Shown here in pieces: positions 13,109 through 63,734 of a DNA stretch of 64,000 nt. Source of the stretch: Escherichia coli. GTDB lineage: Bacteria > Pseudomonadota > Gammaproteobacteria > Enterobacterales > Enterobacteriaceae. The notes below the pieces were generated by a model. The model had not been told where the DNA came from and did not search any database. It saw nothing but the letters and a program-made list of their open reading frames with translations. The stretch lies in assembly GCF_001677475.2 (NCBI RefSeq), contig NZ_CP015229.1. One strand, given 5' to 3'. The translations under genes and the position numbers were made by a program. The stretch's first letter is position 1. The number at the start of each line of letters is the position of its first letter.

Positions 13109-14533
13109 TTACGGCTGATAATAACCCACGCCAAGGTCGTTTTCTTTGCGGGTACGGGCAATGACTGATTCCGGTGTTTCTGCCACGCGCAGACCCATTT
13201 CATCTTCAGTTCGCACCACTTTACCGCGCAGAGAGTTCGGGTAGACGTCGGTAATTTCTACATCGACGAATTTACCGATCATATCCGGTGTGCCCTCGAA
13301 GTTGACCACGCGGTTATTTTCAGTGCGACCGGAAAGCTCCATGATGCTCTTACGCGATGTACCTTCTACCAGAATACGCTGGGTGGTGCCGAGCATCCGG
13401 CGGCTCCATGCCATCGCTTGCTGATTAATACGTTCTTGTAGAATATACAGACGCTGCTTCTTCTCTTCTTCCGGAACATCATCAACCATGTCGGCGGCTG
13501 GTGTACCCGGACGTGCAGAGAAGATAAAGCTGTAGCTCATGTCGAAATTGACGTCGGCAATCAGCTTCATCGTTTTCTCGAAGTCTTCGGTGGTTTCGCC
13601 AGGGAAGCCGACGATGAAGTCAGAACTGATCTGAATATCCGGACGCGCCGCACGCAGTTTACGGATGATCGCTTTGTACTCCAGCGCCGTGTGGGTACGC
13701 CCCATCAGGTTCAGAATGCGATCGGAACCGCTCTGTACCGGCAGGTGCAGGAAACTCACTAGCTCCGGCGTGTCGCGGTACACTTCGATGATATCGTCGG
13801 TGAATTCGATCGGATGGCTGGTGGTAAAGCGAATACGATCGATCCCGTCGATCGCAGCAACCAGACGCAGCAGATCGGCAAACGATCCGGTGGTGCCGTC
13901 GTAGTTTTCACCACGCCAGGCGTTCACGTTCTGACCGAGCAGGTTGACTTCACGCACGCCCTGAGCCGCAAGCTGGGCGATCTCAAACAGAATATCGTCG
14001 GACGGACGGCTTACCTCTTCACCACGGGTGTAAGGCACTACGCAGTAGGTGCAATATTTATTGCAGCCTTCCATGATGGAGACAAACGCGGTCGGCCCTT
14101 CGGCACGTGGTTCCGGCAGACGGTCAAACTTCTCGATTTCCGGGAAGCTGATATCTACAACCGGGCTGCGGTCGCCGCGCACGGAGTTGATCATCTCCGG
14201 CAGACGGTGCAGCGTTTGCGGCCCAAAAATAATATCGACATAGTGGGCGCGCTGGCGAATGTGCTCGCCTTCTTGCGATGCCACGCAGCCGCCGACGCCG
14301 ATAATCAGGTCTGGATTCTTCTCTTTTAACAGTTTCCAGCGACCCAACTGATGGAAGACTTTTTCCTGAGCCTTCTCGCGGATTGAGCAGGTGTTCAGCA
14401 GCAGCACATCCGCTTCTTCCGCCACGTCGGTCAGTTGATAGCCGTGGGTGGCATCCAGCAGATCGGCCATCTTCGATGAATCGTACTCGTTCATCTGACA
14501 GCCCCAGGTTTTAATATGGAGTTTTTTGGTCAT
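13109..14533 (-). CDS. miaB: tRNA-i6A37 methylthiotransferase MiaB
   Basis: 474 aa, radical-SAM CxxxCxxC (CNKYCTYC) and N-terminal MTTase cysteines. Confidence 0.9.
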
Positions 14534-48054: not shown

Positions 48055-51000
48055 ATGGAAGAGGCATTCTGGGCGGCAAGGCAGGGTGATGCCCTGCTGC
48101 ATACGTCGTTTATGGCAGATGTGCTGGGGGCAGTTGTAGAGGTTGCCGCCACAGCCCTGGTGGATGTTCTGGTTGTCGGAACCATGGCGGCGCTGGGCGG
48201 AGTTGAAGTGGCAACGCTGGGCTGCTCAACCATTTTAGCGATCGGTATAGCAACAGCGGTATTTATGTCGTATCAGGGCTGGAATGACCGAATCAGTAGG
48301 GAAAGTGAGCAACTGGCGAACTGGCTTTTCCCGCCTCAGATTGAAGGTTACATCCTCACCGGCTCTGGCGACACATGGATCAACAGCAAACCTGCCGCGC
48401 GGGCCGCGGCGACTGCGGCATCGCGGCAGGACATTGAGGCGCAGGAGGCGCAGGCGAAGGCGGAACAGGAAGAAGCGCAGCGTCAGGAGGATGCCAGAAC
48501 GTTCCTGGATGTGGCCGGGGAATATCTGGAAATGGCGGGGGCCATAGCCCTGGCGGTTAACCCGGTGACAGGGCCTGTGCTGATGTCCCGGGCGCTGCAC
48601 GACCAGCTCAGTACGGAAGAAGGGCGTTCTGAAATGGTGGATGGCGTGACACATTTTGTGTCGGAACTATGGCAGCCCACCGTGGCCAGTGCGGCCCCGG
48701 GCTCCACCCCGACCCCTGACGATAAAATCGACTGCCATAAACATCCCTCCTCACTGACGCAGTTTCTCGCACAAAAAAAAGCCGCCTTTCTGGATGACCC
48801 CCTGGGAACGGCCCTTAACCTGCTGAGTCCGGGCGGTATGCTGGAAACCGCCTTTCAGGGAGTGAATGCGGTTATTGGCAGCATCAGTAATCTGTTCAAA
48901 GGCGATGATGAACCGCCCGCAGCGGAATATATCGCGGAAGGCGCGCGGGATGTGCGTATCAACAGCCAGCCGGCGGCACGCAGCGGGGCACGCTGCACCT
49001 GCGAGGCCAGGGTGGTGAATGAGCCGGGGAACGGGGCGTTTGTGTCACCGGATGTCCGCATTGGCGGTCCGTTACTGGTGGTCAGGGATATCAGAAGCGG
49101 CAGGTCGCAGATAACCCTGGTGGCAACCGTGGCGCTGATGTTTCTTCGCCCGGGCAAAATGCTTTCTAAAATCGCCTGTTTTGCTGCCAGTGTCGGGATG
49201 GGGGTGATGACGCAGAAGGCCATCAGTGCCCTTCCGCATCCGGTCAATGCCGCCACCGGAGCCAAATATCTGGCCGATGACGATGATTTTGACTTCAGTC
49301 TGCCGGGCCACTTTCCGCTGGACTGGCAGCGCGTGTACAGCAGTCGTGACGACCGCACGGAAGGGATGTTCGGGCAGGGCTGGAGTGTAATGTATGAAGT
49401 CAGCCTCGAGCGCACGCCGGGTACTGCTGACGAAAACTGTATGACCTTTGTGTCGGGCATGGGACGACGTCTGGATATGGAGGCCGTGCTGCCGGGGAGC
49501 GGGTTTTACAGCCCCGGCGAAGGACTGGCAGTACGGCGGGGTGAGCAGGGGCACTGGCTTATCAGCAGCGATGACGGGCAGTTTTTTCTGTTTGAGGCCG
49601 ACCCGCGTCACCCGCAGCGCCAGCGGCTGAAAATGCTGGGCGACCGCAACAGCAACTGTCTGAATCTGTACTACGACGAGCTGGGGCGCATCACGCAAAT
49701 CAGCGGTGAACAGCAGCGTCCGTGCATCCGTCTGCATTATGAACTGGCGGCGCATCCCCGGCGGGTGACACAGATTTATCAGCATTTCCCTGAGATGGCT
49801 CCTTTACTGCTGCGTCGTTACCGCTATGACGAGGCCGGCGACCTGAACGGCGTGTACGACAGCACGGGGCACCTGCTGCGCGAGTTTGCTTACGACGAAA
49901 ACCACTGCATGACCCTGCACCGCCAGCCGGGCGGCGAAGGGTATTATTACCAGTGGGGCTGGTATGAAGGCCCGGATGACGCAGCGTGGCGGGTGACGGG
50001 GCACCACACGGACAGCGGTGAACAGTACCGGCTGGCGTGGAGCCTGGCGGCACGCAGGCTGTGCGTGACGGACGGGCTGGGGCGCACGCGTTATCATCAG
50101 TGGGACGCGCAAAATCAGGTGACGGCGTACCAGGACGAAGCCGGGCAGGTGACGACGTTCCGCTGGAGCGACGAAGAACGGCTGTTACTGGGAATGACCG
50201 ATGCGCAGGGCGGCAAATGGCGCTATGTGTATGACCGGCAGGGGCATATCACGGAGACGCACGACCCGCTGGGGCGGGTGGCACAGACACAGTGGCACCC
50301 GGTGTGGCACCAGCCGGAAACGGAGGTGGACGCGGCGGGGAACAGCTGGTGCTGTGAGTACGATGAACGCGGCAATCTTCTTGCGGTGACCGACCCGCTG
50401 CAGCAGAACACCCGGTATCAGTATGACCGCCACGGCCAGGTGGTGCAGATAACGGATGCGCGCGGGGGGAATAAATACCTTCAGTGGAACGAAGACGGGC
50501 AGCTCATGCGGCACACGGACTGTTCCGGCTCGCAGACGGCCTGGTTCTACGACGAACGCACGCGGCTGATACGGATGACAGACGCGCAGAGCCACAGCAC
50601 GCGCTACGGGTATGACGACAGCGGCCACCTGACGGAGGTGATACTGGCGGACGGCCGCACGGTGAATTACCAGTCGGACGCGGCGGGCAGGCTGGTGAAG
50701 TACACCAGCCCGATGGGGAGGATAACGCGCTGGCAGCGGGACGGGCAGGGCCGGGTGCGCAGCCGGACAGACGCGACGGGGCGCAGGACGGCGTTCGGGT
50801 ACGATGCCTACGGGCGTCTGGTCACGCTCACGAACGAGAACGGAGAAAGCTACCGGTTCCGCCATGACGTGCTGGACCGTCTGGCGGAGCAGATAAATCC
50901 GGACGGCTGCCGCCAGACGTACCGCTACAACGCGCTGAACGCGGTCACGGAAGTGGTGTTCACCGGGGACCGGGGCGGTGAAATCCGCCACCGGCTGGCA

Positions 51001-52737
51001 CGTGATGCGGCGGGCCGGCTCACGGCAAAGGAGACAGCCGATGGCCATACGGAATACGTCCATGATGCGGCAGACCAGCTACTGGAAATCCGCCGCCGAC
51101 GGTCGGATGCCGGGGAAACAGACGCACCGGAGATTATCCGTTTCAGTTACGACAGACTGGGGCGGATGCTGACCGAGGAGACGGCGCAGGGCGTCCTGAC
51201 CCATCAGTACGATGAACTCAGCAACCGGACAGCCACCACCTTTCCGGATGGCAGAACGCAGCGTCATCTGTACTACGGCAGCGGCCATCTCCAGCAGATA
51301 AATCTGGACCGGGAGGTCATCAGCGAGTTCACACGTGACGCCCTGCACCGGGAAGTGCTCAGAAGTCAGGGGCGACTGAGCACGCGGCAGCTTTATGACC
51401 CCGCCGGGCGGCTGAAGCGCAGGGAGACATACAGCGGGATGCGCGGGGTGGTACCGGAGACGTTCACGGACCGGCAGTACAGCTACAGCGGCGAGGATGA
51501 ATTGCTGAAGACGCGGCACAGCCGGCGGGGGGAAACGGATTACTTCTACGACCCCACGGGGCGCATCACGGCGTGCCGCTCGGAGGATGAGAGGTATCTG
51601 GCGAGCTGGCAGTACGACGCGGCGGGAAACCTGCTGGGGAGGCGCGCGGGGGAAAGGGCCACGGCAGAAAACAGCGTGGTGCCGTTCAACCGGCTGATGT
51701 CTTACCGTGGTGTGCACTACCGTTATGACGAATTTGGCCGGACGGTGGAAAAGGAGGGCCGGAGCGGCACGCAGAGTTACCGTTATGATGCGGAACACCG
51801 GATGGTGGAAGTGACGACAGCGCGGGGGACATACCGGTATGTGTACGATGCGCTGGGGAGGCGGACGGAAAAACAGCACATCAGCCCTGACGGTAAACCG
51901 TACAACCGGACGACATTTTTATGGGACGGAATGCGGCTGGCGCAGGAGAGCAGGCCGGAGGGAATAAGCAGCCTGTATATCTACAGCGACCCGGGGAGTT
52001 ATGAACCGCTGGCGCGGGTGGATAAGGCGGGCAAAGAGGGCCCGAACCGGATACTGTATTTTCACACGGATGTGAACGGTGCGCCGGAAGAGATGACGGA
52101 CAGTGACGGGAAAATCGTGTGGGAGACGGGGTATCAGGTCTGGGGTAACACGATACAGGAGAAGGACCACGGCGGGGTGGAGCAGAACCTGCGCTACCAG
52201 GGACAGTACCTCGACAGGGAAACGGGGCTGCATTACAATCTGCACAGGTACTATGATCCGGATGTCGGGCGGTTCATGGTAACGGACCCGATAGGGCTGG
52301 CGGGGGGACTGAATCTTTACCAATACTCACCGAATCCAATAAGTTGGATCGACCCGCTGGGATTAACAGGGGAGTGGGTTAATCCCAAAGATATTAATTT
52401 TTCTCAAAGAACAATATCACCTCATGATTATGCCGATATTATGCGTAATGGTGGTTGGGATTGGGACAGGTCTCCATTAAGAGTAATTGATATTGATGGG
52501 CAATTAGTTTCTTATGATAATAGGCGATTAGACGCAGCTCTAGAGGCCGGATTAGATAAGGTTAAAGTCATTAGAGTTGACCCTAATGCTCCTCATCCTG
52601 ACTCATCTACTGGAAAAACATGGTTACAAAAATTCCGAGAGAGATTTAGAGATCGAAGAAATATAAAGGCCGGTGGAATAGTACCAGATAAAGGATTAAA
52701 TTCTCGACCGGAAAGAACATCAAGAGGTTGCAAATGA
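48055..52737 (+). CDS. Rhs-family polymorphic toxin with prePAAR motif, N-terminal TM segments, PAAR motif, YD-repeat shell and variable C-terminal toxin domain
   Basis: 1560-aa ORF; N-terminus MEEAFWAARQGDALLH fits AARxxDxxxH; hydrophobic segments at residues ~20-70; SKPAARA PAAR motif; many YD repeats; [27 protein letters not shown] demarcation before a unique ~130-aa tip. Confidence 0.85.
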   Translation: MEEAFWAARQGDALLHTSFMADVLGAVVEVAATALVDVLVVGTMAALGGVEVATLGCSTILAIGIATAVFMSYQGWNDRISRESEQLANWLFPPQIEGYILTGSGDTWINSKPAARAAATAASRQDIEAQEAQAKAEQEEAQRQEDARTFLDVAGEYLEMAGAIALAVNPVTGPVLMSRALHDQLSTEEGRSEMVDGVTHFVSELWQPTVASAAPGSTPTPDDKIDCHKHPSSLTQFLAQKKAAFLDDPLGTALNLLSPGGMLETAFQGVNAVIGSISNLFKGDDEPPAAEYIAEGARDVRINSQPAARSGARCTCEARVVNEPGNGAFVSPDVRIGGPLLVVRDIRSGRSQITLVATVALMFLRPGKMLSKIACFAASVGMGVMTQKAISALPHPVNAATGAKYLADDDDFDFSLPGHFPLDWQRVYSSRDDRTEGMFGQGWSVMYEVSLERTPGTADENCMTFVSGMGRRLDMEAVLPGSGFYSPGEGLAVRRGEQGHWLISSDDGQFFLFEADPRHPQRQRLKMLGDRNSNCLNLYYDELGRITQISGEQQRPCIRLHYELAAHPRRVTQIYQHFPEMAPLLLRRYRYDEAGDLNGVYDSTGHLLREFAYDENHCMTLHRQPGGEGYYYQWGWYEGPDDAAWRVTGHHTDSGEQYRLAWSLAARRLCVTDGLGRTRYHQWDAQNQVTAYQDEAGQVTTFRWSDEERLLLGMTDAQGGKWRYVYDRQGHITETHDPLGRVAQTQWHPVWHQPETEVDAAGNSWCCEYDERGNLLAVTDPLQQNTRYQYDRHGQVVQITDARGGNKYLQWNEDGQLMRHTDCSGSQTAWFYDERTRLIRMTDAQSHSTRYGYDDSGHLTEVILADGRTVNYQSDAAGRLVKYTSPMGRITRWQRDGQGRVRSRTDATGRRTAFGYDAYGRLVTLTNENGESYRFRHDVLDRLAEQINPDGCRQTYRYNALNAVTEVVFTGDRGGEIRHRLARDAAGRLTAKETADGHTEYVHDAADQLLEIRRRRSDAGETDAPEIIRFSYDRLGRMLTEETAQGVLTHQYDELSNRTATTFPDGRTQRHLYYGSGHLQQINLDREVISEFTRDALHREVLRSQGRLSTRQLYDPAGRLKRRETYSGMRGVVPETFTDRQYSYSGEDELLKTRHSRRGETDYFYDPTGRITACRSEDERYLASWQYDAAGNLLGRRAGERATAENSVVPFNRLMSYRGVHYRYDEFGRTVEKEGRSGTQSYRYDAEHRMVEVTTARGTYRYVYDALGRRTEKQHISPDGKPYNRTTFLWDGMRLAQESRPEGISSLYIYSDPGSYEPLARVDKAGKEGPNRILYFHTDVNGAPEEMTDSDGKIVWETGYQVWGNTIQEKDHGGVEQNLRYQGQYLDRETGLHYNLHRYYDPDVGRFMVTDPIGLAGGLNLYQYSPNPISWIDPLGLTGEWVNPKDINFSQRTISPHDYADIMRNGGWDWDRSPLRVIDIDGQLVSYDNRRLDAALEAGLDKVKVIRVDPNAPHPDSSTGKTWLQKFRERFRDRRNIKAGGIVPDKGLNSRPERTSRGCK

Positions 52738-53169: not shown

Positions 53170-53211
53170 TAAAAAGCCGGGTGAAATTAAATCTTCCCGG
53201 CTTTTTTATTA
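53170..53211. terminator. Hairpin terminator (AAAGCCGGG-loop-CCCGGCTTTTTT), first of four copies of this motif
   Basis: Perfect GC stem flanked by A and T runs between the immunity gene and the convergent symE-like gene; similar hairpins at 57795-57835, 60412-60452 and 62816-62902. Confidence 0.7.
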
Positions 53212-53212
53212 T

Positions 53213-53542
53213 TTAACTCTCGTTCAGCACACTAAACATCCCGTTCCGCATCCCCTTAACCACCTGTTTAACCTGATAAAGTTCTTCCCGCAGCTCCTGC
53301 ACCTCGTCACTGTCAGCGATGATGGTCAGGTACCCCTCCGAAATCTTCACCGTGACACCCCGCCCGGTATCAAATCCCGCCTCAGCCAGCCAGTCGCCCT
53401 TGAGGTGCAGGCTGGGATGTTGTGAATAATACCGGGCTATACCTGTTGTGCGGTCCTGGTGGCGGGTTCTGACATAGCCGACTTTATAGCGGCGCTGGGT
53501 TTTGGAAATGGTGACTTCTGGCGTAATATCGTGTTCAGCCAT
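53213..53542 (-). CDS. SymE-like protein (type I toxin family, AbrB/MazE-like fold), full-length copy
   Basis: 109-aa ORF; core HLKGDWLAEAGFDTGRGVTVKISEGYLTII resembles SymE KGxWLxxAGFxxGxxVxV motif as recalled. Confidence 0.6.
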   Translation of the reverse strand: MAEHDITPEVTISKTQRRYKVGYVRTRHQDRTTGIARYYSQHPSLHLKGDWLAEAGFDTGRGVTVKISEGYLTIIADSDEVQELREELYQVKQVVKGMRNGMFSVLNES

Positions 53543-53781
53543 GATTAACTACTCCTGTTAGTTGCTTGTGGTGAGCGGCTGTTACAGGCGGCAACCTGTA
53601 GCAGTCGCGTTAAATATCAACGCATTACCTTCATTACCTGCTTCATCTTCTCCTGGGTGATCGCCATATCCAGAATACGGCAGATCACTTCCTGATCGTC
53701 TGCTTTAAGCTCATCAACCTGCTTACACAGTTCTTTTAACCGCTTGTTTTTTATATCGAAAACATCGCGGAAGAAGAAGGT

Positions 53782-54861
53782 GTGCGCCAGGCGGCCTACG
53801 CGCTCAAGCTGTTGCAGTCGGACGGGGAACTGACCATCGCCAGTACGGGCAAGGATGACGCCAGCGGTAACCTGGTCACCAAACAGTATACGGTGAAAGG
53901 CCCGGTGATGCTGATGCTGACCACCACCGCCATCGATGTTGACGAGGAGTTACTCAACCGCTGTCTGGTGCTGACGGTGAACGAATCGCGGGAACAGACG
54001 GAAGCTATCCACGCGGCGCAGCGTTACGCGCAGACGCTGGAAGGACTGCTGGCGGCTAACGAAAAAAGTTACATCACGCAGCTTCACCAGAACGCGCAGC
54101 GGCTGCTGCGCCCGCTCAACGTGGTGAACCCGTTCGCCTCGCAGCTCACGTTCATGAGCGACAAAACCCGCACCCGGCGCGACCACATGAAATACCTGAC
54201 GCTGATCCAGGCGATCGCCCTGCTGCACCAGTACCAGCGGGAGATCAAGCGCGTGGAGCATCGCGGGCAGGTGGTGGAGTACATCGAGGTCACGCGGGAG
54301 GACATCGCCCTGGCGAACCGCCTGGCACATGAAATACTCGGGCGCACCCTGGATGAAATGCCGCCGCAGACGCGCAAACTGTTAACCCTGATCCAGCAAT
54401 GGGTGAGCGACAGCGGTCAGGCGCGTGAGGCGATGCGGTTCACCCGTAAACAACTGCGTGACGCGGTACAGTGGGGCGACACGCAGCTCAAGATCCACCT
54501 GGCGCGGCTGGTCGAAATGGAATATCTGCTGGTCCACCGTCTCGGGCTGACGTTCTGCTATGAACTGCTGTTCGACGGGGACGGCAGCGCAGACACCGCG
54601 CACCTGTGCGGGCTGATCGACGTACCGGAACCACCGTATGACGTCGCCCGGTCGGGGGAAACGGTGAAGCAGCTGGCCTCTGGTCGGGCAGTGGTCGGCG
54701 GTCAGTCGGGTAAGGAAAAAACCGCCTCAGACCAGACACCACGAGGCTTACAGGCCGGAGCGGTCGGGGCAGAGGAAAAAGCCCTGTTCCGGCAGAACGC
54801 AAAAAAACCGTCCCGCAATCATACTGCGGCCCGTCCGGGCCGGAGCAACACGGAAGCATAA
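53782..54861 (+). CDS. Hypothetical protein, apparently 5'-truncated (no ATG; frame closed by TAA just upstream); function unknown
   Basis: 1080-nt open frame in GC-rich DNA, far longer than the overlapping opposite-strand ORFs; no family recognised. Confidence 0.35.
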   Translation: MRQAAYALKLLQSDGELTIASTGKDDASGNLVTKQYTVKGPVMLMLTTTAIDVDEELLNRCLVLTVNESREQTEAIHAAQRYAQTLEGLLAANEKSYITQLHQNAQRLLRPLNVVNPFASQLTFMSDKTRTRRDHMKYLTLIQAIALLHQYQREIKRVEHRGQVVEYIEVTREDIALANRLAHEILGRTLDEMPPQTRKLLTLIQQWVSDSGQAREAMRFTRKQLRDAVQWGDTQLKIHLARLVEMEYLLVHRLGLTFCYELLFDGDGSADTAHLCGLIDVPEPPYDVARSGETVKQLASGRAVVGGQSGKEKTASDQTPRGLQAGAVGAEEKALFRQNAKKPSRNHTAARPGRSNTEA

Positions 54862-55065
54862 GTACGACTTCATCCGGTCGGGGCAACGGCTGCAATAGTC
54901 GGCCCCTGGTCGGCAGTCAGTCGGCGGGTAGTCGGGGTGCGTAAAACCCCCGCAGGCCGCGCCCGGCAAGGTTCAGGCCATGAAGCGGTCGGCCTGCCTG
55001 AAAATCACTGTTCCATCCTCTGTTCTTCTCTCTGTCGTACCGTAATCTCAATCAGGACAATCATC

Positions 55066-56095
55066 ATGACAAAACCCATCCCTCCGGGGCCGGAGGAACT
55101 TTACCTCAGCCGCCAGAACCTGACGCAGCGCCAGTATGTGGTGGTGTGGCTGGAATACCTGACGGCACAGAACTACAGCGCGATCAGCGTAAGCGACTAT
55201 CGCGAACGGGTGTTACCGTTCGTGACATGGTGTGAGGAGCGCGGGCTGATGTACGCGCCGCAGGTCAGCCAGCCGCAGCTTGAAAGCTATCAGCGCCACC
55301 TTCACGGCTACCGTAAGGCGGACGGCCATCCGCTGGCGGTCAGCGGTCAGGTGGGCCGGATAAGCGCGATAAAAATCTTTTACCGCTGGCTGCTGAAGCG
55401 GCATGTGATCCTGTACAACCCCGCCGATCTGCTGGAACTGCCAAAGCCGGACAAACGGCTTCCGGCGCAGGTGTTCAGTAAGGGCGAGACGCGGCAGGTG
55501 TTACAGAGCCTTGATATCAACACGCCCGTTGGCCTGCGCAACCGGACAATCCTTGAGGTGCTGTGGAGTACCGGGATCAGGCGGATGGAGCTGGCCAGCC
55601 TGATGTTGTGGGATGTTGACACCGGGCGCGGTGTGGTTAACGTGCGGCAGGGTAAGGGGCGTAAGGATCGGGTGGTTCCGGTGGGCCATGTGGCGCTGGG
55701 ATGGCTGGCAAGACGTGCGACCACAGATGACGCGCCAGCGCGACAGTGGTCATCTGTTCGTGACGAAATACGGCAGCGGGATGAAACGCAACACGCTGAC
55801 GGCGATGGCAGGCACCGCGATCCGGGAAACGGCACGGATCGACAAACCGGGCGCGTGCCATATCTTCCGGCACTCGATGGCGACGCAGATGCTGGACAAT
55901 GGCGCAGACACGCGGCATATCCAGGCGATCCTCGGCCATGAGAAGCTGGAGACGACGCAGATCTACACGAAGGTGGCCATAAAGCCGTTGCAGAAGGTTC
56001 ATGCGCGGACGCACCCGGCAGAGAAGCGGCGAAGGGAAAAGCGCGTGCAGCAGCCGGACGAGGCCACCGTATCGCCGGACAGCCTGAAAAGTTAG
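55066..56095 (+). pseudogene. Tyrosine recombinase (phage-integrase family) with frameshift
   Basis: N-terminal SAM-like domain in one frame to ~55710 ([13 protein letters not shown]), catalytic domain ([16 protein letters not shown]...[13 protein letters not shown]...[13 protein letters not shown]) in the other frame from ~55700; single indel inferred. Confidence 0.65.
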
Positions 56096-57005
56096 GTGGC
56101 GATCCCTGTAAGGCCGTGGGGTGCGGTGCAGGGCAGACAACCGCCTTCCCTGGCGGTTGACTGCCCCCTGCCAGCGGCGTGCGCGGGGGTAAATGCCGTC
56201 CGCCCCGTGGAGGCAGCCGCGCCCCATGCGACCATGCAGCACGGGGCAAACGTCATTCAACATAATGCGGATTATGCGCACTCTCGCCGGTCGGCAATGA
56301 CGGCGAACCCGATCCGCTGTGCGCGGCTCGTGTTCGCACAATCCGCATTATGTCTGACGCCCCCGCGTTCAGCCCCGTGGTCCGTGCAGCGCAAAGCTTC
56401 GCTGGCGCTCCGCTCTGCTGCCGGGTGCGGTGTTCTTCTGTGGCCCCGCAGTCGCCGCCATCCCTGGCGGCTCCGGTGCCGTTCTGCGGCAGCGTCATCG
56501 TGTGGCAGTCAGTCAGAAAAGGGTGTCGGCCTGGCGGCCTCCGCTTGTAAGGGCTTTATGCCCGCCCGGCGTCGTCTGGCTGCGGCGGCTCGTGCCGCGC
56601 AAAAAGGCCGCGCGTCACTCGTTCCCGCCTCGCCAGCTTCCGCTGCCCGCCCCGGTCAGGTGTGGTCATGCAAAGGCAACCCCCGGTCAGGCAGCGGTGC
56701 CACAGAGCGCCGTTCCGTCGCTTGCGGACTCTCTGCCGCCCGCACCCGCAGACCCCGCGCCGTGGCCCCGCCATGCCGCCGGAGGCGTCCTGGCGGCCCC
56801 CCGTCACGGGGTGCCGGAAACGGACTTAGTGGAAAGCGGAATGACAGGCGGTGGTGGTGGTGCTATGGTGAGCGGGCGTGAAAATGCGCGTCGGGAAAGT
56901 CGGGTTAACGTGCTGTTAAATAAGTAAAAGGTGATAGCCGGGAAGCCAGAAACGGCGCGGGCGGTAGCGTGTTAAAAAGTGTGACCTGCACCGGATCGTT
57001 CCGAT

Positions 57006-57515
57006 GACCCGATAGGACTGCGGGGTGGATTAAATCTCTATCAATATGCGCCGAATCCGTTGAGCTATATTGATCCTCTTGGCCTTTGTAAATTAAGGGG
57101 AAGTAATGGGCGCTTCAGAAGTGCTCAGAATATTCAGGAAGAAATAGGCGGACTACCTAATTTTTCAGGGAAGACTCCAGGGCAAATACGACAAACTTTG
57201 CGTAATCGAGTTTATTCGTCGGTACAAGCGCATAGTGGTGGAGAGGTCTGGACAAAAGCATTACCTGACGGAAATACTGTTGCTGTGAGAATTGACCCGG
57301 CAAATCCTCGCTCACCTTCACATTATGCTGATGCTGTGCCTCATGCTCATATTGAAACAGTTCCAACGTCCAGTGTTTCTAATGGGAATTATCGCCCACG
57401 AGACGTGACTGGCAGGCATACTGCCACTGGTGGGATTTCTGACCGAGGAACGAATCCGAATCATAATGCTGATGTTCACATTCCAATGTCTCCGGGACGA
57501 TTCCCATATAATTAA
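57006..57515 (+). CDS. Orphan Rhs C-terminal toxin module (DPIGL homology patch plus toxin tip), no upstream core
   Basis: Frame opens with [28 protein letters not shown] then a unique ~140-aa domain; no ATG at the patch. Confidence 0.6.
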   Translation, partial: DPIGLRGGLNLYQYAPNPLSYIDPLGLCKLRGSNGRFRSAQNIQEEIGGLPNFSGKTPGQIRQTLRNRVYSSVQAHSGGEVWTKALPDGNTVAVRIDPANPRSPSHYADAVPHAHIETVPTSSVSNGNYRPRDVTGRHTATGGISDRGTNPNHNADVHIPMSPGRFPYN

Positions 57516-57526
57516 TGTGAGGTTTT

Positions 57527-57790
57527 ATGAATATCCGAAATCAATATAATGAAGCCTTAAATAAATTAGAAGTTGATGTTAATGATGGTTTAAGAGATTT
57601 AATAAACATATATTGTGTAGCTATTGATTCTTTTGAAAATGATATCGTTGACTCGATTGCTTTATACGTGATTGATATGGGAAATAAAGATACTTGTCGA
57701 TATCTACAAGAAATATTATCAGAGAATGAAGATCCTTATTTAGTAAAAGAATTTAATGCATGGATGAAAGAAATTAAGAAAAAATATTAA
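57527..57790 (+). CDS. Putative immunity protein for the orphan toxin at 57006-57515
   Basis: AT-rich 87-aa ORF 11 nt downstream of the toxin stop with RBS-like GAGG. Confidence 0.5.
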   Translation: MNIRNQYNEALNKLEVDVNDGLRDLINIYCVAIDSFENDIVDSIALYVIDMGNKDTCRYLQEILSENEDPYLVKEFNAWMKEIKKKY

Positions 57791-57836
57791 AATAAAAGCC
57801 GGGACGGTTATTAAATCTTCCCGGCTTTTTTATTAC

Positions 57837-58070
57837 TTAACTTTCGTTCAGCACACTAAACATCCCGTCACGCATTCCCTTAACCGCCTGTTTAACCAGA
57901 TAAAGTTCCCTGCGCAGTTCCTGTACTTCGTTGTTATCCGCAAGCAGGATCAGACATCCTTCCGAGATCTTCACGGTGACGCCCGTGCCGATCTCAAATC
58001 CCGCTTCTCTCAGCCATTTTGCGCTGATTTTGATTACCGGCGTGTCGCTGCGGTTGGGCAGATAACCCAC
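57837..58070 (-). CDS. SymE-like protein, short paralog (77 aa)
   Basis: KISAKWLREAGFEIGTGVTVKISEGCLILLADNNEVQELRRELY...; synonymous differences from copy 1 in this frame. Confidence 0.55.
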   Translation of the reverse strand: MGYLPNRSDTPVIKISAKWLREAGFEIGTGVTVKISEGCLILLADNNEVQELRRELYLVKQAVKGMRDGMFSVLNES

Positions 58071-58263
58071 GGTACAGTGGCGCTGTGTTTTGGAAATGAT
58101 ATTCTTATATTTAATCTGCTGATTAGATAGTAAAATTAACTTCGTGCAGATAGCTTACTTTATCAGGGTGCGGCGGTAGTGTATGAACTATGACGTGATG
58201 GTTTTAGTGATTTATATACGAAAATGACAGTACGATCCGGACTTCGAATAGATTGCGCGATTT

Positions 58264-58413
58264 GACCCGATAGGGCTGGCGGGGGGATTAAATCTCTATC
58301 AATATGCGCCTAATCCGTTAAGTTATATTGATCCACTTGGATTGTGTCCTAAAACTGACTTTAAATGGGGAAATCCCAGGGAAAGATCACGTAATGCTGC
58401 TTTTTTGTACTAA
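58264..58413 (+). pseudogene. Truncated orphan rhs C-terminal fragment
   Basis: [49 protein letters not shown] then stop, just before the ISAs1 element. Confidence 0.5.
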
Positions 58414-58419
58414 ACAATT

Positions 58420-59700
58420 CGCATTTTATGTTTAAAAATTGAGATATTCCTCATTACATAAAGCTGTTTTTTATTGCTTATACATGATCAAATACTCCTT
58501 ACATAATTAAGGAGAACAAAATGGAACTTAAAAAATTGATGGAACATATTTCTATTATCCCCGATTACAGACAAGCCTGGAAAGTGGAACATAAATTATC
58601 GGATATTCTACTGTTGACTATTTGTGCCGTTATTTCGGGTGCAGAAGGCTGGGAAGATATAGAGGATTTTGGGGAAACACATCTCGATTTTTTGAAGCAA
58701 TATGGTGATTTTGATAATGGTATTCCTGTTCACGATACCATTGCCAGAGTTGTATCCTGTATCAGTCCTGCAAAATTTCACGAGTGCTTTATTAACTGGA
58801 TGCGTGACTGCCATTCTTCAGATGATAAAGACGTCATCGCAATTGATGGAAAAACGCTCCGGCATTCTTATGACAAGAGTCGCCGCAGGGGAGCGATTCA
58901 TGTCATTAGTGCGTTCTCAACAATGCACAGTCTGGTCATCGGACAGATCAGGACGGATGAGAAATCAAATGAAATTACAGCTATCCCTGAACTTCTTAAC
59001 ATGCTGGATATTAAAGGAAAAATCATCACAACTGATGCGATGGGTTGCCAGAAAGATATTGCAGAGAAGATACAAAAACAGGGAGGTGATTATTTATTCG
59101 CTGTAAAAGGAAACCAGGGGCGGCTAAATAAAGCCTTTGAGGAAAAATTCCCACTGAAAGAATTAAATAATCCAGAGCATGACAGTTACGCAATTAGTGA
59201 AAAGAGTCACGGCAGAGAAGAAATCCGTCTTCACATTGTTTGCGATGTCCCTGATGAACTTATTGATTTCACGTTTGAATGGAAAGGACTGAAGAAATTA
59301 TGCGTGGCAGTCTCCTTTCGGTCAATAATAGCAGAACAAAAGAAAGAGCCAGAAATGACGGTCAGATATTATATCAGTTCTGCTGATTTAACCGCAGAGA
59401 AGTTCGCCACAGCAATCCGAAACCACTGGCACGTGGAGAATAAGCTGCACTGGCGTCTGGACGTGGTAATGAATGAAGACGACTGCAAAATAAGAAGAGG
59501 AAACGCCGCAGAATTATTTTCAGGGATACGGCACATCGCTATTAATATTTTAACGAATGATAAGGTATTCAAGGCAGGGTTAAGACGTAAGATGCGAAAA
59601 GCAGCCATGGACAGAAACTATCTCGCGTCAGTCCTTGCGGGGAGCGGGCTTTCGTAATCTTGCCCTGGGGGAAATCCAAAAAGTAAGCCTACATACGGTC
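58420..59700 (+). mobile_element. ISAs1-family (H-repeat) element; ends not precisely mapped
   Basis: Contains the 378-aa H-repeat-associated transposase ORF; boundaries approximate. Confidence 0.6.
58521..59657 (+). CDS. ISAs1-family transposase (H-repeat-associated protein, YhhI/YbfD-like)
   Basis: 378-aa ORF with typical H-rpt protein content; K-12 rhs loci carry homologues. Confidence 0.8.
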
Positions 59701-60452: not shown

Positions 60453-60695
60453 TTAACTCTCGTTCAGCACACTAAACATCCCGTCACGCATCCCCTTAAC
60501 CGCCTGTTTAACCTGATAAAGTTCCCTGCGCAGTTCCTGTACTTCGTTGTTATCCGCGAGCAGGATCAGGCAACCTTCCGAGATCTTCACGGTAACGCCC
60601 GTACCGATCTCAAATCCCGCTTCTCTCAGCCATTTGGCGCTGATTTTGATCACCGGCGTGTCGCTGCGGTTGGGCAGATGCTGCGCTGGCAGCAC
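60453..60695 (-). CDS. SymE-like protein, paralog with replaced 5' end
   Basis: Near-identical to the 57837-58070 copy from codon ~5 onward; upstream sequence replaced by the rhs core fragment at ~60700. Confidence 0.5.
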   Translation of the reverse strand: MLPAQHLPNRSDTPVIKISAKWLREAGFEIGTGVTVKISEGCLILLADNNEVQELRRELYQVKQAVKGMRDGMFSVLNES

Positions 60696-60704
60696 GACGG
60701 CAGA

Positions 60705-62083
60705 GCCAGACGTACCGTTACAACGCGCTGAACGCGGTCACGGAAGTGGTGTTCACCGGGGACCGGGGCGGTGAAATCCGCCACCGGCTGGCACGTGATG
60801 CGGCGGGCCGGCTCACGGCAAAGGAGACAGCCGATAGCCGAACGGAATACGTCCATGATGCGGCAGACCAGCTACTGGAAATCCGCCGCCGACGGTCGGA
60901 TGCCGGGGAAATGGACGCACCGGAGATTATCCGTTTCAGTTACGACAGACTGGGGCGGATGCTGACTGAGGAGACGGCGCAGGGCGTCCTGACCCATCAG
61001 TACGATGAACTCAGCAACCGGACAGCCACCACCTTTCCGGACGGCAGAACGCAGCGTCATCTGTACTACGGCAGCGGCCATCTCCAGCAGATAAATCTGG
61101 ACCGGGAGGTCATCAGCGAGTTCACACGTGACGCCCTGCACCGGGAAGTGCTCAGAAGTCAGGGGCGACTGAGCACGCGGCAGCTTTATGACCCCGCCGG
61201 GCGGCTGAAGCGCAGGGAGACATACAGCGGGATGCGCGGGGTGGTACCGGAGACGTTCACGGACCGGCAGTACAGCTACAGCGGCGAGGATGAACTGCTG
61301 AAGACGCGGCACAGCCGGCGGGGGGAAACGGATTACTTCTACGACCCCACGGGGCGCATCACGGCGTGCCGCTCGGAGGATGAGGGGTATCTGGCGAGCT
61401 GGCAGTACGACGCGGCGGGAAACCTGCTGGGGAGGCGCGCGGGGGAAAGGGCCACGGCAGAAAACAGCGTGGTGCCGTTCAACCGGCTGATGTCTTACCG
61501 TGGTGTGCACTACCGTTATGACGAATTTGGCCGGACGGTGGAAAAGGAGGGCCGGAGCGGCACGCAGAGTTACCGTTATGATGCGGAACACCGGATGGTG
61601 GAAGTGACGACAGCGCGGGGGACATACCGGTATGTGTACGATGCGCTGGGGAGGCGGACGGAAAAACAGCACATCAGCCCTGACGGTAAAGCGTACAACC
61701 GGACGACATTTTTATGGGACGGAATGCGGCTGGCGCAGGAGAGCAGGCCGGAGGGAATAAGTAGCCTGTATATCTACAGCGACCCGGGGAGTTATGAACC
61801 GCTGGCGCGGGTGGATAAGGCGGGCAAAGAGGGCCCGAACCGGATACTGTATTTTCACACGGATGTGAACGGTGCGCCGGAAGAGATGACGGACAGTGAC
61901 GGGAAAATCGTGTGGGAGACGGGGTATCAGGTCTGGGGTAACACGATACAGGAGAAGGACCACGGCGGGGTGGAGCAGAACCTGCGCTACCAGGGACAGT
62001 ACCTCGACAGGGAAACGGGGCTGCACTACAATCTGCACAGGTACTATGATCCGGATGTCGGGCGGTTCATGGTAACGGACCCG
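60705..62083 (+). repeat. Near-identical direct repeat of the main rhs core 3' region (50914-52292)
   Basis: Nucleotide and protein near-identity to the main rhs over ~1.38 kb with a handful of substitutions (read by eye). Confidence 0.8.
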
Positions 62084-62518
62084 ATAGGGCTGAGAGGCGG
62101 ATTAAACTTATACCAATACGCGCCTAATCCGTTAAGCTGGATCGATCCTCTTGGATTAAGTGCCGCCTCTGATTTACCTCAATTAAAAGGAAGATCCCCA
62201 GGGGCAATAGGTTCTATTCTTACTGATAATGGATTCAATTTAGATAAACAAACAAGTACCGGGAATCAGACTTGGAGCCACGCCGATGGTTCTAAAGTTC
62301 GTGTCGATCCCTATGGAAACCAAAGTATGACTATGAAAAACGGTGATCCATTACCGAAATCAGGAGCTAACGCACATGTGCATAAATATGATCCCGGTGA
62401 GATACCGCTGAATGACAGAGGCATTCCGAGTACAAATCCAAATGAAACACATATAGGGATCAGGAATCCAAATGATTATTCTACAAAACGAGGGCGGGCC
62501 CATGGGTGCGGCGTATAA
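60746..62518 (+). CDS. Orphan Rhs fragment: C-terminal part of YD-repeat core plus an alternative C-terminal toxin tip
   Basis: 590-aa ORF; first ~455 aa match the main Rhs, ending [27 protein letters not shown], then a unique ~120-aa tip. Confidence 0.8.
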   Translation: MVFTGDRGGEIRHRLARDAAGRLTAKETADSRTEYVHDAADQLLEIRRRRSDAGEMDAPEIIRFSYDRLGRMLTEETAQGVLTHQYDELSNRTATTFPDGRTQRHLYYGSGHLQQINLDREVISEFTRDALHREVLRSQGRLSTRQLYDPAGRLKRRETYSGMRGVVPETFTDRQYSYSGEDELLKTRHSRRGETDYFYDPTGRITACRSEDEGYLASWQYDAAGNLLGRRAGERATAENSVVPFNRLMSYRGVHYRYDEFGRTVEKEGRSGTQSYRYDAEHRMVEVTTARGTYRYVYDALGRRTEKQHISPDGKAYNRTTFLWDGMRLAQESRPEGISSLYIYSDPGSYEPLARVDKAGKEGPNRILYFHTDVNGAPEEMTDSDGKIVWETGYQVWGNTIQEKDHGGVEQNLRYQGQYLDRETGLHYNLHRYYDPDVGRFMVTDPIGLRGGLNLYQYAPNPLSWIDPLGLSAASDLPQLKGRSPGAIGSILTDNGFNLDKQTSTGNQTWSHADGSKVRVDPYGNQSMTMKNGDPLPKSGANAHVHKYDPGEIPLNDRGIPSTNPNETHIGIRNPNDYSTKRGRAHGCGV

Positions 62519-62902: not shown

Positions 62903-63136
62903 TTAACTCTCGTTCAGTACACTAAATATCCCGTCACGCATACCCTTAACCACCTGTTTAACCTGATAAAGTTCCCTGCGCAGTTCCTGTACTTCGTTGT
63001 TATCTGCAAGCAGGATCTGGCAGCCTTCCGAGATCTTCACGGTAACGCCCGTGCCGATCTCAAATCCCGCTTCTCTCAGCCATTTTGCGCTGATTTTGAT
63101 TACCGGCGTGTCGCTGCGGTTGGGCAGATAACCCAC
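62903..63136 (-). CDS. SymE-like protein, short paralog (77 aa)
   Basis: Near-identical to the 57837-58070 copy. Confidence 0.55.
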   Translation of the reverse strand: MGYLPNRSDTPVIKISAKWLREAGFEIGTGVTVKISEGCQILLADNNEVQELRRELYQVKQVVKGMRDGIFSVLNES

Positions 63137-63329
63137 GGTACAGTGGCGCTGTGTTTTGGAAATGATATTTTTGTATTTAACCTGCTGATTAGATAGTAAA
63201 ATAAACTTCGTGCAGATAGCTTACTTTATCAGGGTGTGGCGGTAGCGTATGAACTATGATGCGGTGGTTTCAGGAATGTACGTACAAAATCGATAGTACG
63301 ATCCTCCAATCAGGTAGATTTGCTGCCCT

Positions 63330-63734
63330 GATCCGATAGGGCTAAGAGGCGGGCTGAACCTGTATGCTTATGCGCCTAATCCGCTGAAATATATTGATCC
63401 ACTCGGATTAAAAAAAGAGCTCTGTAATGGAACTACTCGTGTGCGGCATTATACTAATCGTAAAGGTTCAAATGCGATTGCTGAAAGTGGGATAATTAAG
63501 GCGCATGATAACGGTCGTGTATATTTGGAACCTGCGAATAAAAAACCACTCAGTCAAGTAGACATAGAGGCGAAATATCAAATAGGTCGTGGGAAAGGTA
63601 GAGATTATGTGGATACAGATGTATCTAACGAGCAATTAGAGTGGGTAACAAACCCTCGATATCATATAGATGAATTGACTGTGAAAGGTGATATTATTCT
63701 TTCTGAAAATGCAAAAATAACTCGGCGTAAATAA
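63330..63734 (+). CDS. Orphan Rhs C-terminal toxin module
   Basis: Opens with DPIGLRGGLNLYAYAPNPLKYIDPLGL then a unique ~105-aa domain. Confidence 0.6.
   Translation, partial: DPIGLRGGLNLYAYAPNPLKYIDPLGLKKELCNGTTRVRHYTNRKGSNAIAESGIIKAHDNGRVYLEPANKKPLSQVDIEAKYQIGRGKGRDYVDTDVSNEQLEWVTNPRYHIDELTVKGDIILSENAKITRRK

Follow-up and report, generated by a model that had tools for sequence, protein, structure and literature searches.

The rhs locus of the Escherichia coli contig NZ_CP015229.1 (assembly GCF_001677475.2) raises the question of how a GC-rich block made up of broken genes came to lie within an array of rhs toxin tips. The stretch analyzed, hereafter the window, is 64,000 nucleotides long. 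In it a full-length rhs gene (48055-52737) comes after the kdp operon, which is on the minus strand, and the array lies downstream of this gene; the locus occupies the rhsC position, between kdp and ybgA. According to the original prediction, made from the sequence alone, the block (53543-56950) is a decayed integrative element that landed in the array. Foreign-looking, GC-rich and decayed it is, but more than 70 loci, representing at least 10 genera, have the same backbone in the same position relative to rhs core end, tip, immunity gene and symE, often in tandem, which argues against a chance landing; the backbone is part of how rhs arrays are built. The block is probably what is left of the backbone of a plasmid-like carrier of Rhs tips, which recombined at the rhs core end and installed a new tip.

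A decayed backbone downstream of the rhs gene

Intact versions of the backbone exist at the same locus, beside ybgA, in E. coli CUWW11. In this strain the rhs gene and its immunity gene are followed by symE (minus strand), a gene for a helix-turn-helix (HTH) protein (minus), genes for a 910-aa 'DNA primase' (plus) and XerC (plus), a 'hypothetical' gene, two small genes and another symE (minus), the array ending at ybgA-phrB. The whole unit occurs twice in tandem at the rhsC/ybgA locus. Over 5.9 kb these units share 97.8% identity; the stretch starts just past the stop codon of symE and closes with a core-end remnant of about 80 bp, and it is only in the tip and immunity genes after this constant block that the units differ. 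The order of the backbone is symE (minus), RstR-like HTH repressor (minus), 910-aa primase/MCM-like ATPase (plus), XerC-like recombinase (plus), a GC-rich tail of about 0.9 kb, the rhs core end of about 80 bp, orphan tip and immunity gene. By blastn and tblastn the window copy is collinear with it, at 81-98% identity. The unit is bounded by symE on the left and by an rhs core end on the right, at about 53170 and 57086, and is wider than the block as first delimited. The latter has a GC content of 61.9%, and does stand out from its surroundings (51.6% in the whole window; the rhs core has 61.6%, tips and immunity genes 33-38%).

The left-most gene of the constant unit, symE-1 (53213-53542, minus strand), was recognized from the list of open reading frames (ORFs) and the NCBIfam SymE model NF010128. 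It scores 42.6 bits and does not reach the equivalog cutoff of 132; homologues are called 'SymE family' in RefSeq. symE-1 falls within the 97.8%-identical block common to the CUWW11 tandem units. The block had been thought to replace the left part of a symE leader seen in the other units of the array. The comparison of loci reverses this view: symE next to a divergent HTH gene is the arrangement of intact elements across genera, symE residing on the minus strand upstream of the primase gene in 61 of 74 copies, and the leader of units 2 and 4 of the array is the unusual one, found in 2 of 5,426 complete E. coli genomes.

The gene remnant suspected on the minus strand at the left junction corresponds to the last 48 codons of the RstR-like repressor gene (53620-53763); they match residues 85-132 of the HTH protein of locus L001 (132 aa) at 100% identity, and the N-terminal HTH domain is deleted. 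The full HTH protein scores 78.9 bits against NF041951 (phage_RstR; cutoff 80). An internal deletion of about 2.19 kb, defined by blastn and by direct comparison with L001 (positions 1648 and 3838), has its junction, AAAACA/TCGCGG, at 53763-53764, and took away the N terminus of the HTH protein, the promoter region between the two divergent genes, and the primase gene up to about codon 615. What follows (53764-54861, plus strand) is the 3' remnant of the primase-helicase gene, encoding the second half of the predicted MCM-like AAA+ region, the winged helix, and a divergent C-terminal tail, which differs from that of the reference; zinc ribbon, Toprim domain and Walker A motif are gone. The 359-aa ORF described as lacking an upstream ATG (53782-54861, GTG start, frame closed by a TAA at 53737-53739) is the 3' part of the gene for the 910-aa primase, with 97.9% identity to the CUWW11 protein over residues 612-903 of the latter.

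Relative to an intact homologue, the xerC-like tyrosine recombinase pseudogene (55066-56095, plus strand) suffered an 11-bp frameshifting deletion near 55708. Its halves lie in different frames, as had been seen (55066-55713 and about 55714-56095), share 92% and 84% identity with the intact homologue of 351 aa, and score 303.7 and 202.3 bits against NF002331, each under the cutoff of 371 because the gene is split. The motifs GIRRxE, KG.KDR, HxFRH and LGH...IYT can be read across the two halves. One CUWW11 copy is annotated as frameshifted at another position, so that backbone decay is recurrent. With 2.2 kb lost and xerC frameshifted, the window copy has no intact replication, repressor or recombinase gene, and can no longer replicate or recombine, its Xer hairpin (see below) being still intact. 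A scan of the block for promoters and terminators gave nothing remarkable.

By megablast, related DNA was detected in 222 of the 5,426 complete E. coli genomes of the collection (about 4%), always on the chromosome and at a median of three places per genome; the block is thus not conserved across the species. None of these genomes matches the window array end to end, the best identity for the element being about 91.6%.

Intact proteins, relatives and circular records

The 345 N-terminal residues of the intact primase are of the DnaG type (Pfam Zn_ribbon_DnaG, DNAG_N and Toprim; 175 bits against TIGR01391). From a structure model, the C-terminal half may be an MCM-like AAA+ ATPase followed by a winged helix; a PDB sequence search with this half gave no match. 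The intact E. coli recombinase scores 533.2 bits against NF002331 (PRK01287; cutoff 371), 221.6 bits against the housekeeping XerC model TIGR02224 (cutoff 335.15), is also under the XerD cutoff, and reaches 119.6 bits against the integron integrase model TIGR02249 (cutoff 265). By these scores it is a paralogue of the chromosomal XerC, not the housekeeping enzyme. PHROG integrase and primase families match the backbone proteins. Many Photorhabdus units feature an extra fragment resembling xerC residues 19-131 (about 41% identity) just 5' of the full xerC gene (13278-13616 in locus L014; likewise in L017, L021, L023, L024 and L027).

A scan of one genome per species gave 223 relatives of the primase; 73 loci were kept, and these were searched with the E. 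coli proteins. The xerC gene lies directly 3' of the primase gene in all 66 copies with enough sequence, and a recognizable HTH gene is found upstream, on the minus strand, in 60 of 83; the remaining HTH genes are probably too divergent to be detected. An rhs gene or core end resides within 3 kb upstream in 25 of 32 copies of a close clade (at least 65% identity), and upstream in none of the 14 copies of a sister clade (about 55% identity). The close clade includes Photorhabdus, Xenorhabdus, Pectobacterium, Brenneria, Dickeya, Serratia, Edaphovirga and Citrobacter, and tandem units are common in it. The GC content of the backbone is 57-63% in every host, the AT-rich Photorhabdus and Xenorhabdus included. 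A long array was noticed in Photorhabdus thracensis (NZ_CP011104, 2264236-2318470), where loci L017 and L024, each with several backbone units, are about 12 kb apart on one chromosome; the array region may reach at least 54 kb, and two more copies are found elsewhere in the same genome.

Where two units have primases of 70-80% identity, their HTH alleles share only 28-39%, much as would be expected of immunity or incompatibility determinants. The E. coli allele (L001, 8133-8531) is common to Pectobacterium fontis, Photorhabdus australis and Budvicia, at 77-85% identity. Modular exchange of an immunity or incompatibility region by way of the HTH gene is suggested by these identities.

Two circular records of about unit length support an extrachromosomal state of the unit. 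The circular plasmid of Lonsdalea populi (11,289 bp) encodes RelE/DinJ, XerC, a primase 71% identical, the HTH protein, SymE, an NTF2-fold immunity protein and an endonuclease tip; it also carries a second, degenerate unit, and no other replication gene. Both Lonsdalea tips start with the last 27 or so codons of the rhs core (...DPIGxxGG...NP..W.DPFGL), with stop codons just upstream, and therefore could not be expressed as toxins unless joined to a core. A circular record of Shigella flexneri (8,758 bp) corresponds to one unit plus ISEc1. Among small draft contigs, a terminal-overlap test for circularity was uninformative, 1 of 43 showing an overlap (38 bp).

The cargo is not restricted to Rhs tips. 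At least three tandem units of the sister clade are found in an Enterobacter sp. plasmid (NZ_CP074171, 151795-171687; locus L005), each with DinJ/RelE and two CdiA-type (VENN) tip/immunity pairs, annotated as 'adhesin'; the cassettes open with ...VVENN, the boundary of the CdiA pre-toxin region. In a Salmonella plasmid a sister-clade element adjoins a gene of the ShlB/FhaC family, and the sister-clade cassette of Xenorhabdus szentirmaii encodes a MafI immunity protein (93.9 bits, cutoff 31). When cargo ORFs were pooled, the Pfam domains EndoU, Endonuclea_NS_2, Colicin-DNase, WHH and Imm-NTF2 were detected. An NCBIfam scan of the cargo of distant relatives (alphaproteobacterial and Rhodanobacter) gave no match.

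The tail, its palindrome and the rest of the array

Downstream of xerC, the conserved tail (56096-57005) has a GC content of 66.9%. The overlapping ORFs of this region had been judged non-coding, a view borne out by comparison: the tail exhibits no codon periodicity, most indels are not multiples of three, and mismatches between relatives fall by codon phase as 29/29/41, vs. 9/9/37 in xerC. A coding role was rejected on these grounds. DNA identity in the tail is 65-85% across genera, and GC content 60-66% even in AT-rich hosts. A 160-aa 'hypothetical protein' annotated by RefSeq on the equivalent E. coli tail is conserved only in close relatives, and is probably spurious. Nor is the tail degraded rhs core, as the match is limited to the last 80 bp or so; it matches no Rfam family, and the search for iterons revealed just short two-copy repeats. 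The segment 56355-57005 (about 650 bp, 67% GC) is conserved across genera and not derived from rhs. Its fold is no better than that of shuffled sequences (z = +0.9 and -1.0), and a structured RNA was rejected; one may guess that it is a replication origin.

An inverted-repeat search located in the tail a conserved imperfect palindrome of 100 nt (56255-56354, minus strand). Its 3' arm houses a dif-like Xer site (56255-56282, minus strand), AGTGCGCATAA-TCCGCA-TTATGTTGAAT, matching the arms of E. coli dif at 20 of 22 positions, with a 6-bp spacer. This is the sole match in the window at up to 3 mismatches, 0.00 being expected by chance. As single-stranded DNA (ssDNA), the minus strand is predicted to fold into a hairpin of -46 kcal/mol (z = -7.1). 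In the family the hairpin lies about 160-290 bp 3' of xerC, and so it does in the window. Of 50 relatives, about 40 have a related site with its palindrome, among them the sister clade, a contig of Pseudomonas and the Lonsdalea plasmid; the site occurs once per unit, and exactly once on that plasmid. The XerD arm is near-invariant, XerC arm and spacer vary by lineage, the partner arm varying along with them. In an alignment of 13 distinct stems and 17 pairs, hand-anchored at positions chosen by the analyst, 99.1% of cells pair and 5 pairs show compensatory changes, a level reached by none of 500 shuffles. Wobble cells are G.T on the minus strand in 25 of 25 cases, and would be A.C mismatches on the other strand. 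Hairpins of the long-loop class have extra C residues bulging from the central region of one arm. Two inverted sites for one protein could co-vary without folding; for this reason, and because the anchors were self-chosen, the likeness to the folded attP of CTXphi and attC of integrons is a lead, not a demonstration.

The tail ends in an rhs core-end remnant (57005-57086, plus strand), which heads orphan tip-2. The remnant (DPIGL...) is 85% identical to residues 1411-1437 of the main Rhs, and its DNA about 80% identical to the main core end at 52285-52364, by way of the copy at 58263-58343. Behind it are the tip-2 ORF (57060-57515) and a putative immunity gene, imm-2 (57527-57790), on the plus strand, with a GC content of 37.8% over 57060-57790. 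The segment 57005-57790 has the features of an orphan Rhs module, with a PxxxxDPxGL core end, an AT-rich tip, a small immunity ORF and no core upstream. In E. coli E2348/69 and others the same tip-2 and immunity DNA ends a gene annotated as RHS repeat-associated core protein, as expected of a formerly active tip.

In the array, the main rhs gene with tip-1 and imm-1 is followed by symE-1 and the decayed backbone, the only unit to have kept one, then by tip-2 and imm-2. Further downstream are symE-2 (57840-58130), a core end (58231-58383), an ISAs1-family element (58521-59657), a truncated symE-3 (60456-60665), a 1.5-kb rhs core fragment with tip-4 (60707-62518), symE-4 (62906-63163) and a last core end (63279-63428). 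The insertion element, encoding a 378-aa transposase of the ISAs1/ISEc1 family (H-repeat) directly after the core end, probably interrupts an orphan tip-3; the same family is found in the 8.76-kb circular record of Shigella. The core fragment at 60707-62518 (residues 954-1472) is 97.7% identical to the main gene over 1,465 bp; unlike the ends of about 80 bp of the other orphans, it offers ample homology for tip switching by deletion. The symE-to-core-end junctions of the two units without backbone (58099-58230 and 63164-63278) are 94-95% alike.

Some smaller features cluster at the symE genes. A candidate SymR-like antisense RNA (53537-53611, plus strand) overlapping the 5' end of symE-1 is a weak match to Rfam RF01809 (39 bits, E = 6.9e-5; gathering score 61). 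Within the coding region of symE-1, in antisense orientation, isrA (RF01385) was detected at 53343-53471 (plus strand; 107.5 bits vs. a gathering score of 51), with a weaker copy (33 bits) at 57967-58050 in symE-2. The Rfam model Ssr1 spans both symE regions, far under its gathering score. Two near-identical hairpins, with a GC stem and flanking A/T runs (AAAAGCCGGG...CCCGGCTTTTT), at 53170-53210 and 57795-57830, separate each immunity gene from the symE that converges on it; they coincide with the left edge of the constant unit, and look like bidirectional terminators.

Proposed tip carriage and its alternatives

An intact unit encodes a SymE-type toxin, a divergent RstR/cI-like repressor, a putative replication protein with DnaG-type primase and predicted MCM-like and winged-helix regions, and an XerC-family recombinase; it also has the dif-like hairpin and, as cargo, a promoterless tip behind only the last 27 or so rhs core codons, plus its immunity gene. 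In the proposed mechanism, the circular element would recombine with a chromosomal rhs gene through the common core-end sequence; by a single crossover, the full-length rhs gene would acquire the new tip along with its immunity gene and symE. The backbone would end up directly downstream, and the former tip would become a silent orphan behind tail and core end. The order found in the window (core, tip-1, imm-1, symE-1, truncated HTH gene, truncated primase gene, broken xerC, tail, core end, tip-2, imm-2) is exactly the one predicted by such a crossover, which also explains why the displaced tip has a mere 80 bp or so of core. Xer site and recombinase would resolve multimers while the element is free, would release single-unit circles from tandem arrays, and may also insert circles at a resident site, giving tandem units with different tips. 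After integration the backbone would be dispensable, and decay.

Several observations weigh against this reading. The core-end homology is short (about 80 bp) and 74-90% identical among the window copies, and would now serve RecA poorly as a substrate. A search of the 5,426 E. coli genomes with the joined flanks revealed neither an empty site nor a crossover scar; it returned only genomes having tip-2 in an annotated RHS-core protein gene. In neighbouring Photorhabdus units the similarity breakpoints are not at the hairpin, and so give no sign of its use in crossover. Units 2 and 4 of the window have no backbone, and a sequence of about 100 bp links symE to the next core end; this junction matches nothing in the full element, and is either one deletion later copied or a site-specific product. 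The Lonsdalea and Shigella circular records could represent circles that were excised, or tandem repeats closed up in assembly. Genes for transfer are lacking, and both small records are classed by MOB-suite as non-mobilizable. In the model behind the MCM-like assignment, the mean predicted local distance difference test score (pLDDT) is 69, and the ATPase core is poorly modelled.

Units similar to integrons or to integrative mobile elements exploiting Xer recombination (IMEXs), in which circles would be inserted and excised mainly by XerC-type recombination at the hairpin, perhaps as folded ssDNA, the window copy being a decayed insert, are a rather unlikely alternative. It would agree with the dif-like site, its 20 of 22 arm positions and conserved XerD arm, with the compensatory stem changes, the G.T wobbles confined to one strand and the bulged central bases, with the presence of exactly one site per unit and per free plasmid, and with tandem arrays of constant length, expected if circles insert at a resident site. 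Yet the site is internal to the unit, not at a detectable boundary of similarity; the limits of the variable part are the rhs core end and the symE terminator, and not Xer sites; the junctions devoid of backbone revealed no second site or half-site, and the fusion of tips to a full-length rhs gene is left unexplained. It is improbable that the backbone is a domesticated, non-mobile module of rhs loci, by which the host would amplify, shuffle or regulate tip-immunity cassettes, inactivated in the window. Chromosomal location in almost all records, lack of transfer genes, the repressor gene, and near-identical units within a genome, fitting local duplication, speak in its favor. A selfish mobile replicon fits better, given the patchy distribution (about 4% of E. 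coli genomes), the GC-richness in every host, AT-rich Photorhabdus and Xenorhabdus too, the frequent decay of copies, the addiction modules (symE in every unit, and in some RelE/DinJ or ParDE as well), and the occurrence on plasmids and beside contact-dependent inhibition (CDI) loci.

The view advanced in the original prediction, that an unrelated integrative element, the remnant of a prophage or genomic island, was inserted by chance and then decayed, is very improbable. Foreign base composition and decayed genes fit it, and a tyrosine recombinase plus a replication gene are typical of islands and satellites, as are the PHROG matches. Position and orientation by core end, tip, immunity gene and symE are the same in dozens of loci, even in tandem; the att duplication that an insertion of this kind might leave was not found, nor was a tRNA or dif target, and the free circular form itself bears rhs tips. 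A sequencing or assembly error is an unlikely source of the 11-bp deletion, and the notion that the recombinase is functional in the real genome is scarcely credible: the deletion lies in a non-repetitive sequence, and is no homopolymer slip, the same element has a 2.2-kb deletion hitting essential parts of two other genes, and a copy in another strain, as described above, is annotated with an independent frameshift.

As a tip carrier, the element shares traits with several known systems. Like integrons, it has a recombinase of the Xer/IntI branch, a covarying hairpin site with bulges, and arrays of promoterless cassettes; unlike integrons, it features one site per unit of about 6.6 kb, not one per cassette, and none at the junctions without backbone, neither attI nor Pc were identified, and cassettes are bounded by rhs core end and symE terminator. 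IMEXs insert at the dif site of the chromosome and encode no recombinase. Elements of the CTXphi type and the backbone have in common an RstR-like repressor and a dif-like site whose two imperfect half-sites, in inverted orientation, could fold into a forked hairpin, irregular at its center (the repressor of the element scores 78.9 bits, cutoff 80). The element differs in encoding an XerC-family enzyme, in residing in toxin loci, in having no phage morphogenesis genes, and in its putative replication by a primase-helicase, not by a rolling-circle RstA; the window copy lies in the rhs array between kdp and ybgA, and not at dif, its sole dif-like site being internal.

Small circular replicons provide a further parallel to the site. 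ColE1 cer and pSC101 psi, as the element, feature one dif-like core per replicon, beside a non-coding flank, and AGTGCGCATAA-TCCGCA-TTATGTTGAAT has the spacing of cores of this type, with arms 6-8 bp apart. Both cer and psi depend on the XerC/XerD of the host and on accessory sites for ArgR/PepA or ArcA; the element brings its own XerC paralogue, and its site is palindromic, with a variable XerC arm and a conserved XerD arm. Fusions of a priming domain with an MCM-like AAA+ helicase are found in prophages and plasmids, BcMCM of Bacillus cereus being an example, and the element is predicted to encode one too. The priming domain of BcMCM is of the archaeo-eukaryotic type; that of the element is of the DnaG type, with CHC2 zinc ribbon and Toprim. 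It is possible, if somewhat doubtful, that the backbone family is an uncharacterised class of small replicons, combining a DnaG-primase/MCM-like helicase, a heteroimmune repressor, an XerC paralogue and a folded hairpin acting as ssDNA site for its own recombinase, and serving as vehicle for C-terminal displacement, with Rhs, CdiA or Maf tips plus a homology arm as cargo.

Literature searches retrieved no description of a primase/XerC element in rhs loci. Xer systems beside Rhs poly-immunity arrays of Xenorhabdus and Photorhabdus are reportedly the subject of Martinkus et al. (Curr Biol 2026, doi 10.1016/j.cub.2025.11.047). The kind of element is treated as recently recognized; with the window copy it gains a further member, decayed, from a genome of the E. 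coli type. Clusters of recombinase-associated acquired interbacterial defence (rAID) are said to occur in Bacteroidales (Ross et al. 2019). XerC/D genes adjoin polyimmunity loci (Zhang et al. 2012, PMC3482391). Both kinds of loci resemble the element in linking a tyrosine recombinase to arrays of orphan toxin and immunity genes; they belong to different phyla and have neither primase-helicase nor SymE, whereas in the arrays described here tips remain headed by a core-end arm.

Ever since Jackson et al. (2009, PMC2935791) put forward their displacement model, the way in which Rhs and CDI toxins gain C-terminal tips has been an open question; the model postulated a stable episomal circle bearing a tip, and its authors remarked that no integrase was known to go with rhs. 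The order found in the window is the outcome predicted by this model, the old tip being shunted downstream with a short core remnant; what differs is that a candidate vehicle, with replication and recombination genes, is here physically attached. Though dead, the block points to a widespread element with the properties needed by such a vehicle: a replication protein, a repressor, addiction genes, a recombinase of the Xer type with its site, and tips provided with a homology arm. The element suggests why orphan tips have just 80 bp or so of core, and why the arrays are strewn with symE genes and GC-rich 'junk'. In practical terms, it flags as probably spurious the 'hypothetical protein' annotations in the GC-rich tail. 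The local copy, being non-functional, is of limited interest; the family bears directly on the diversification of polymorphic toxins.

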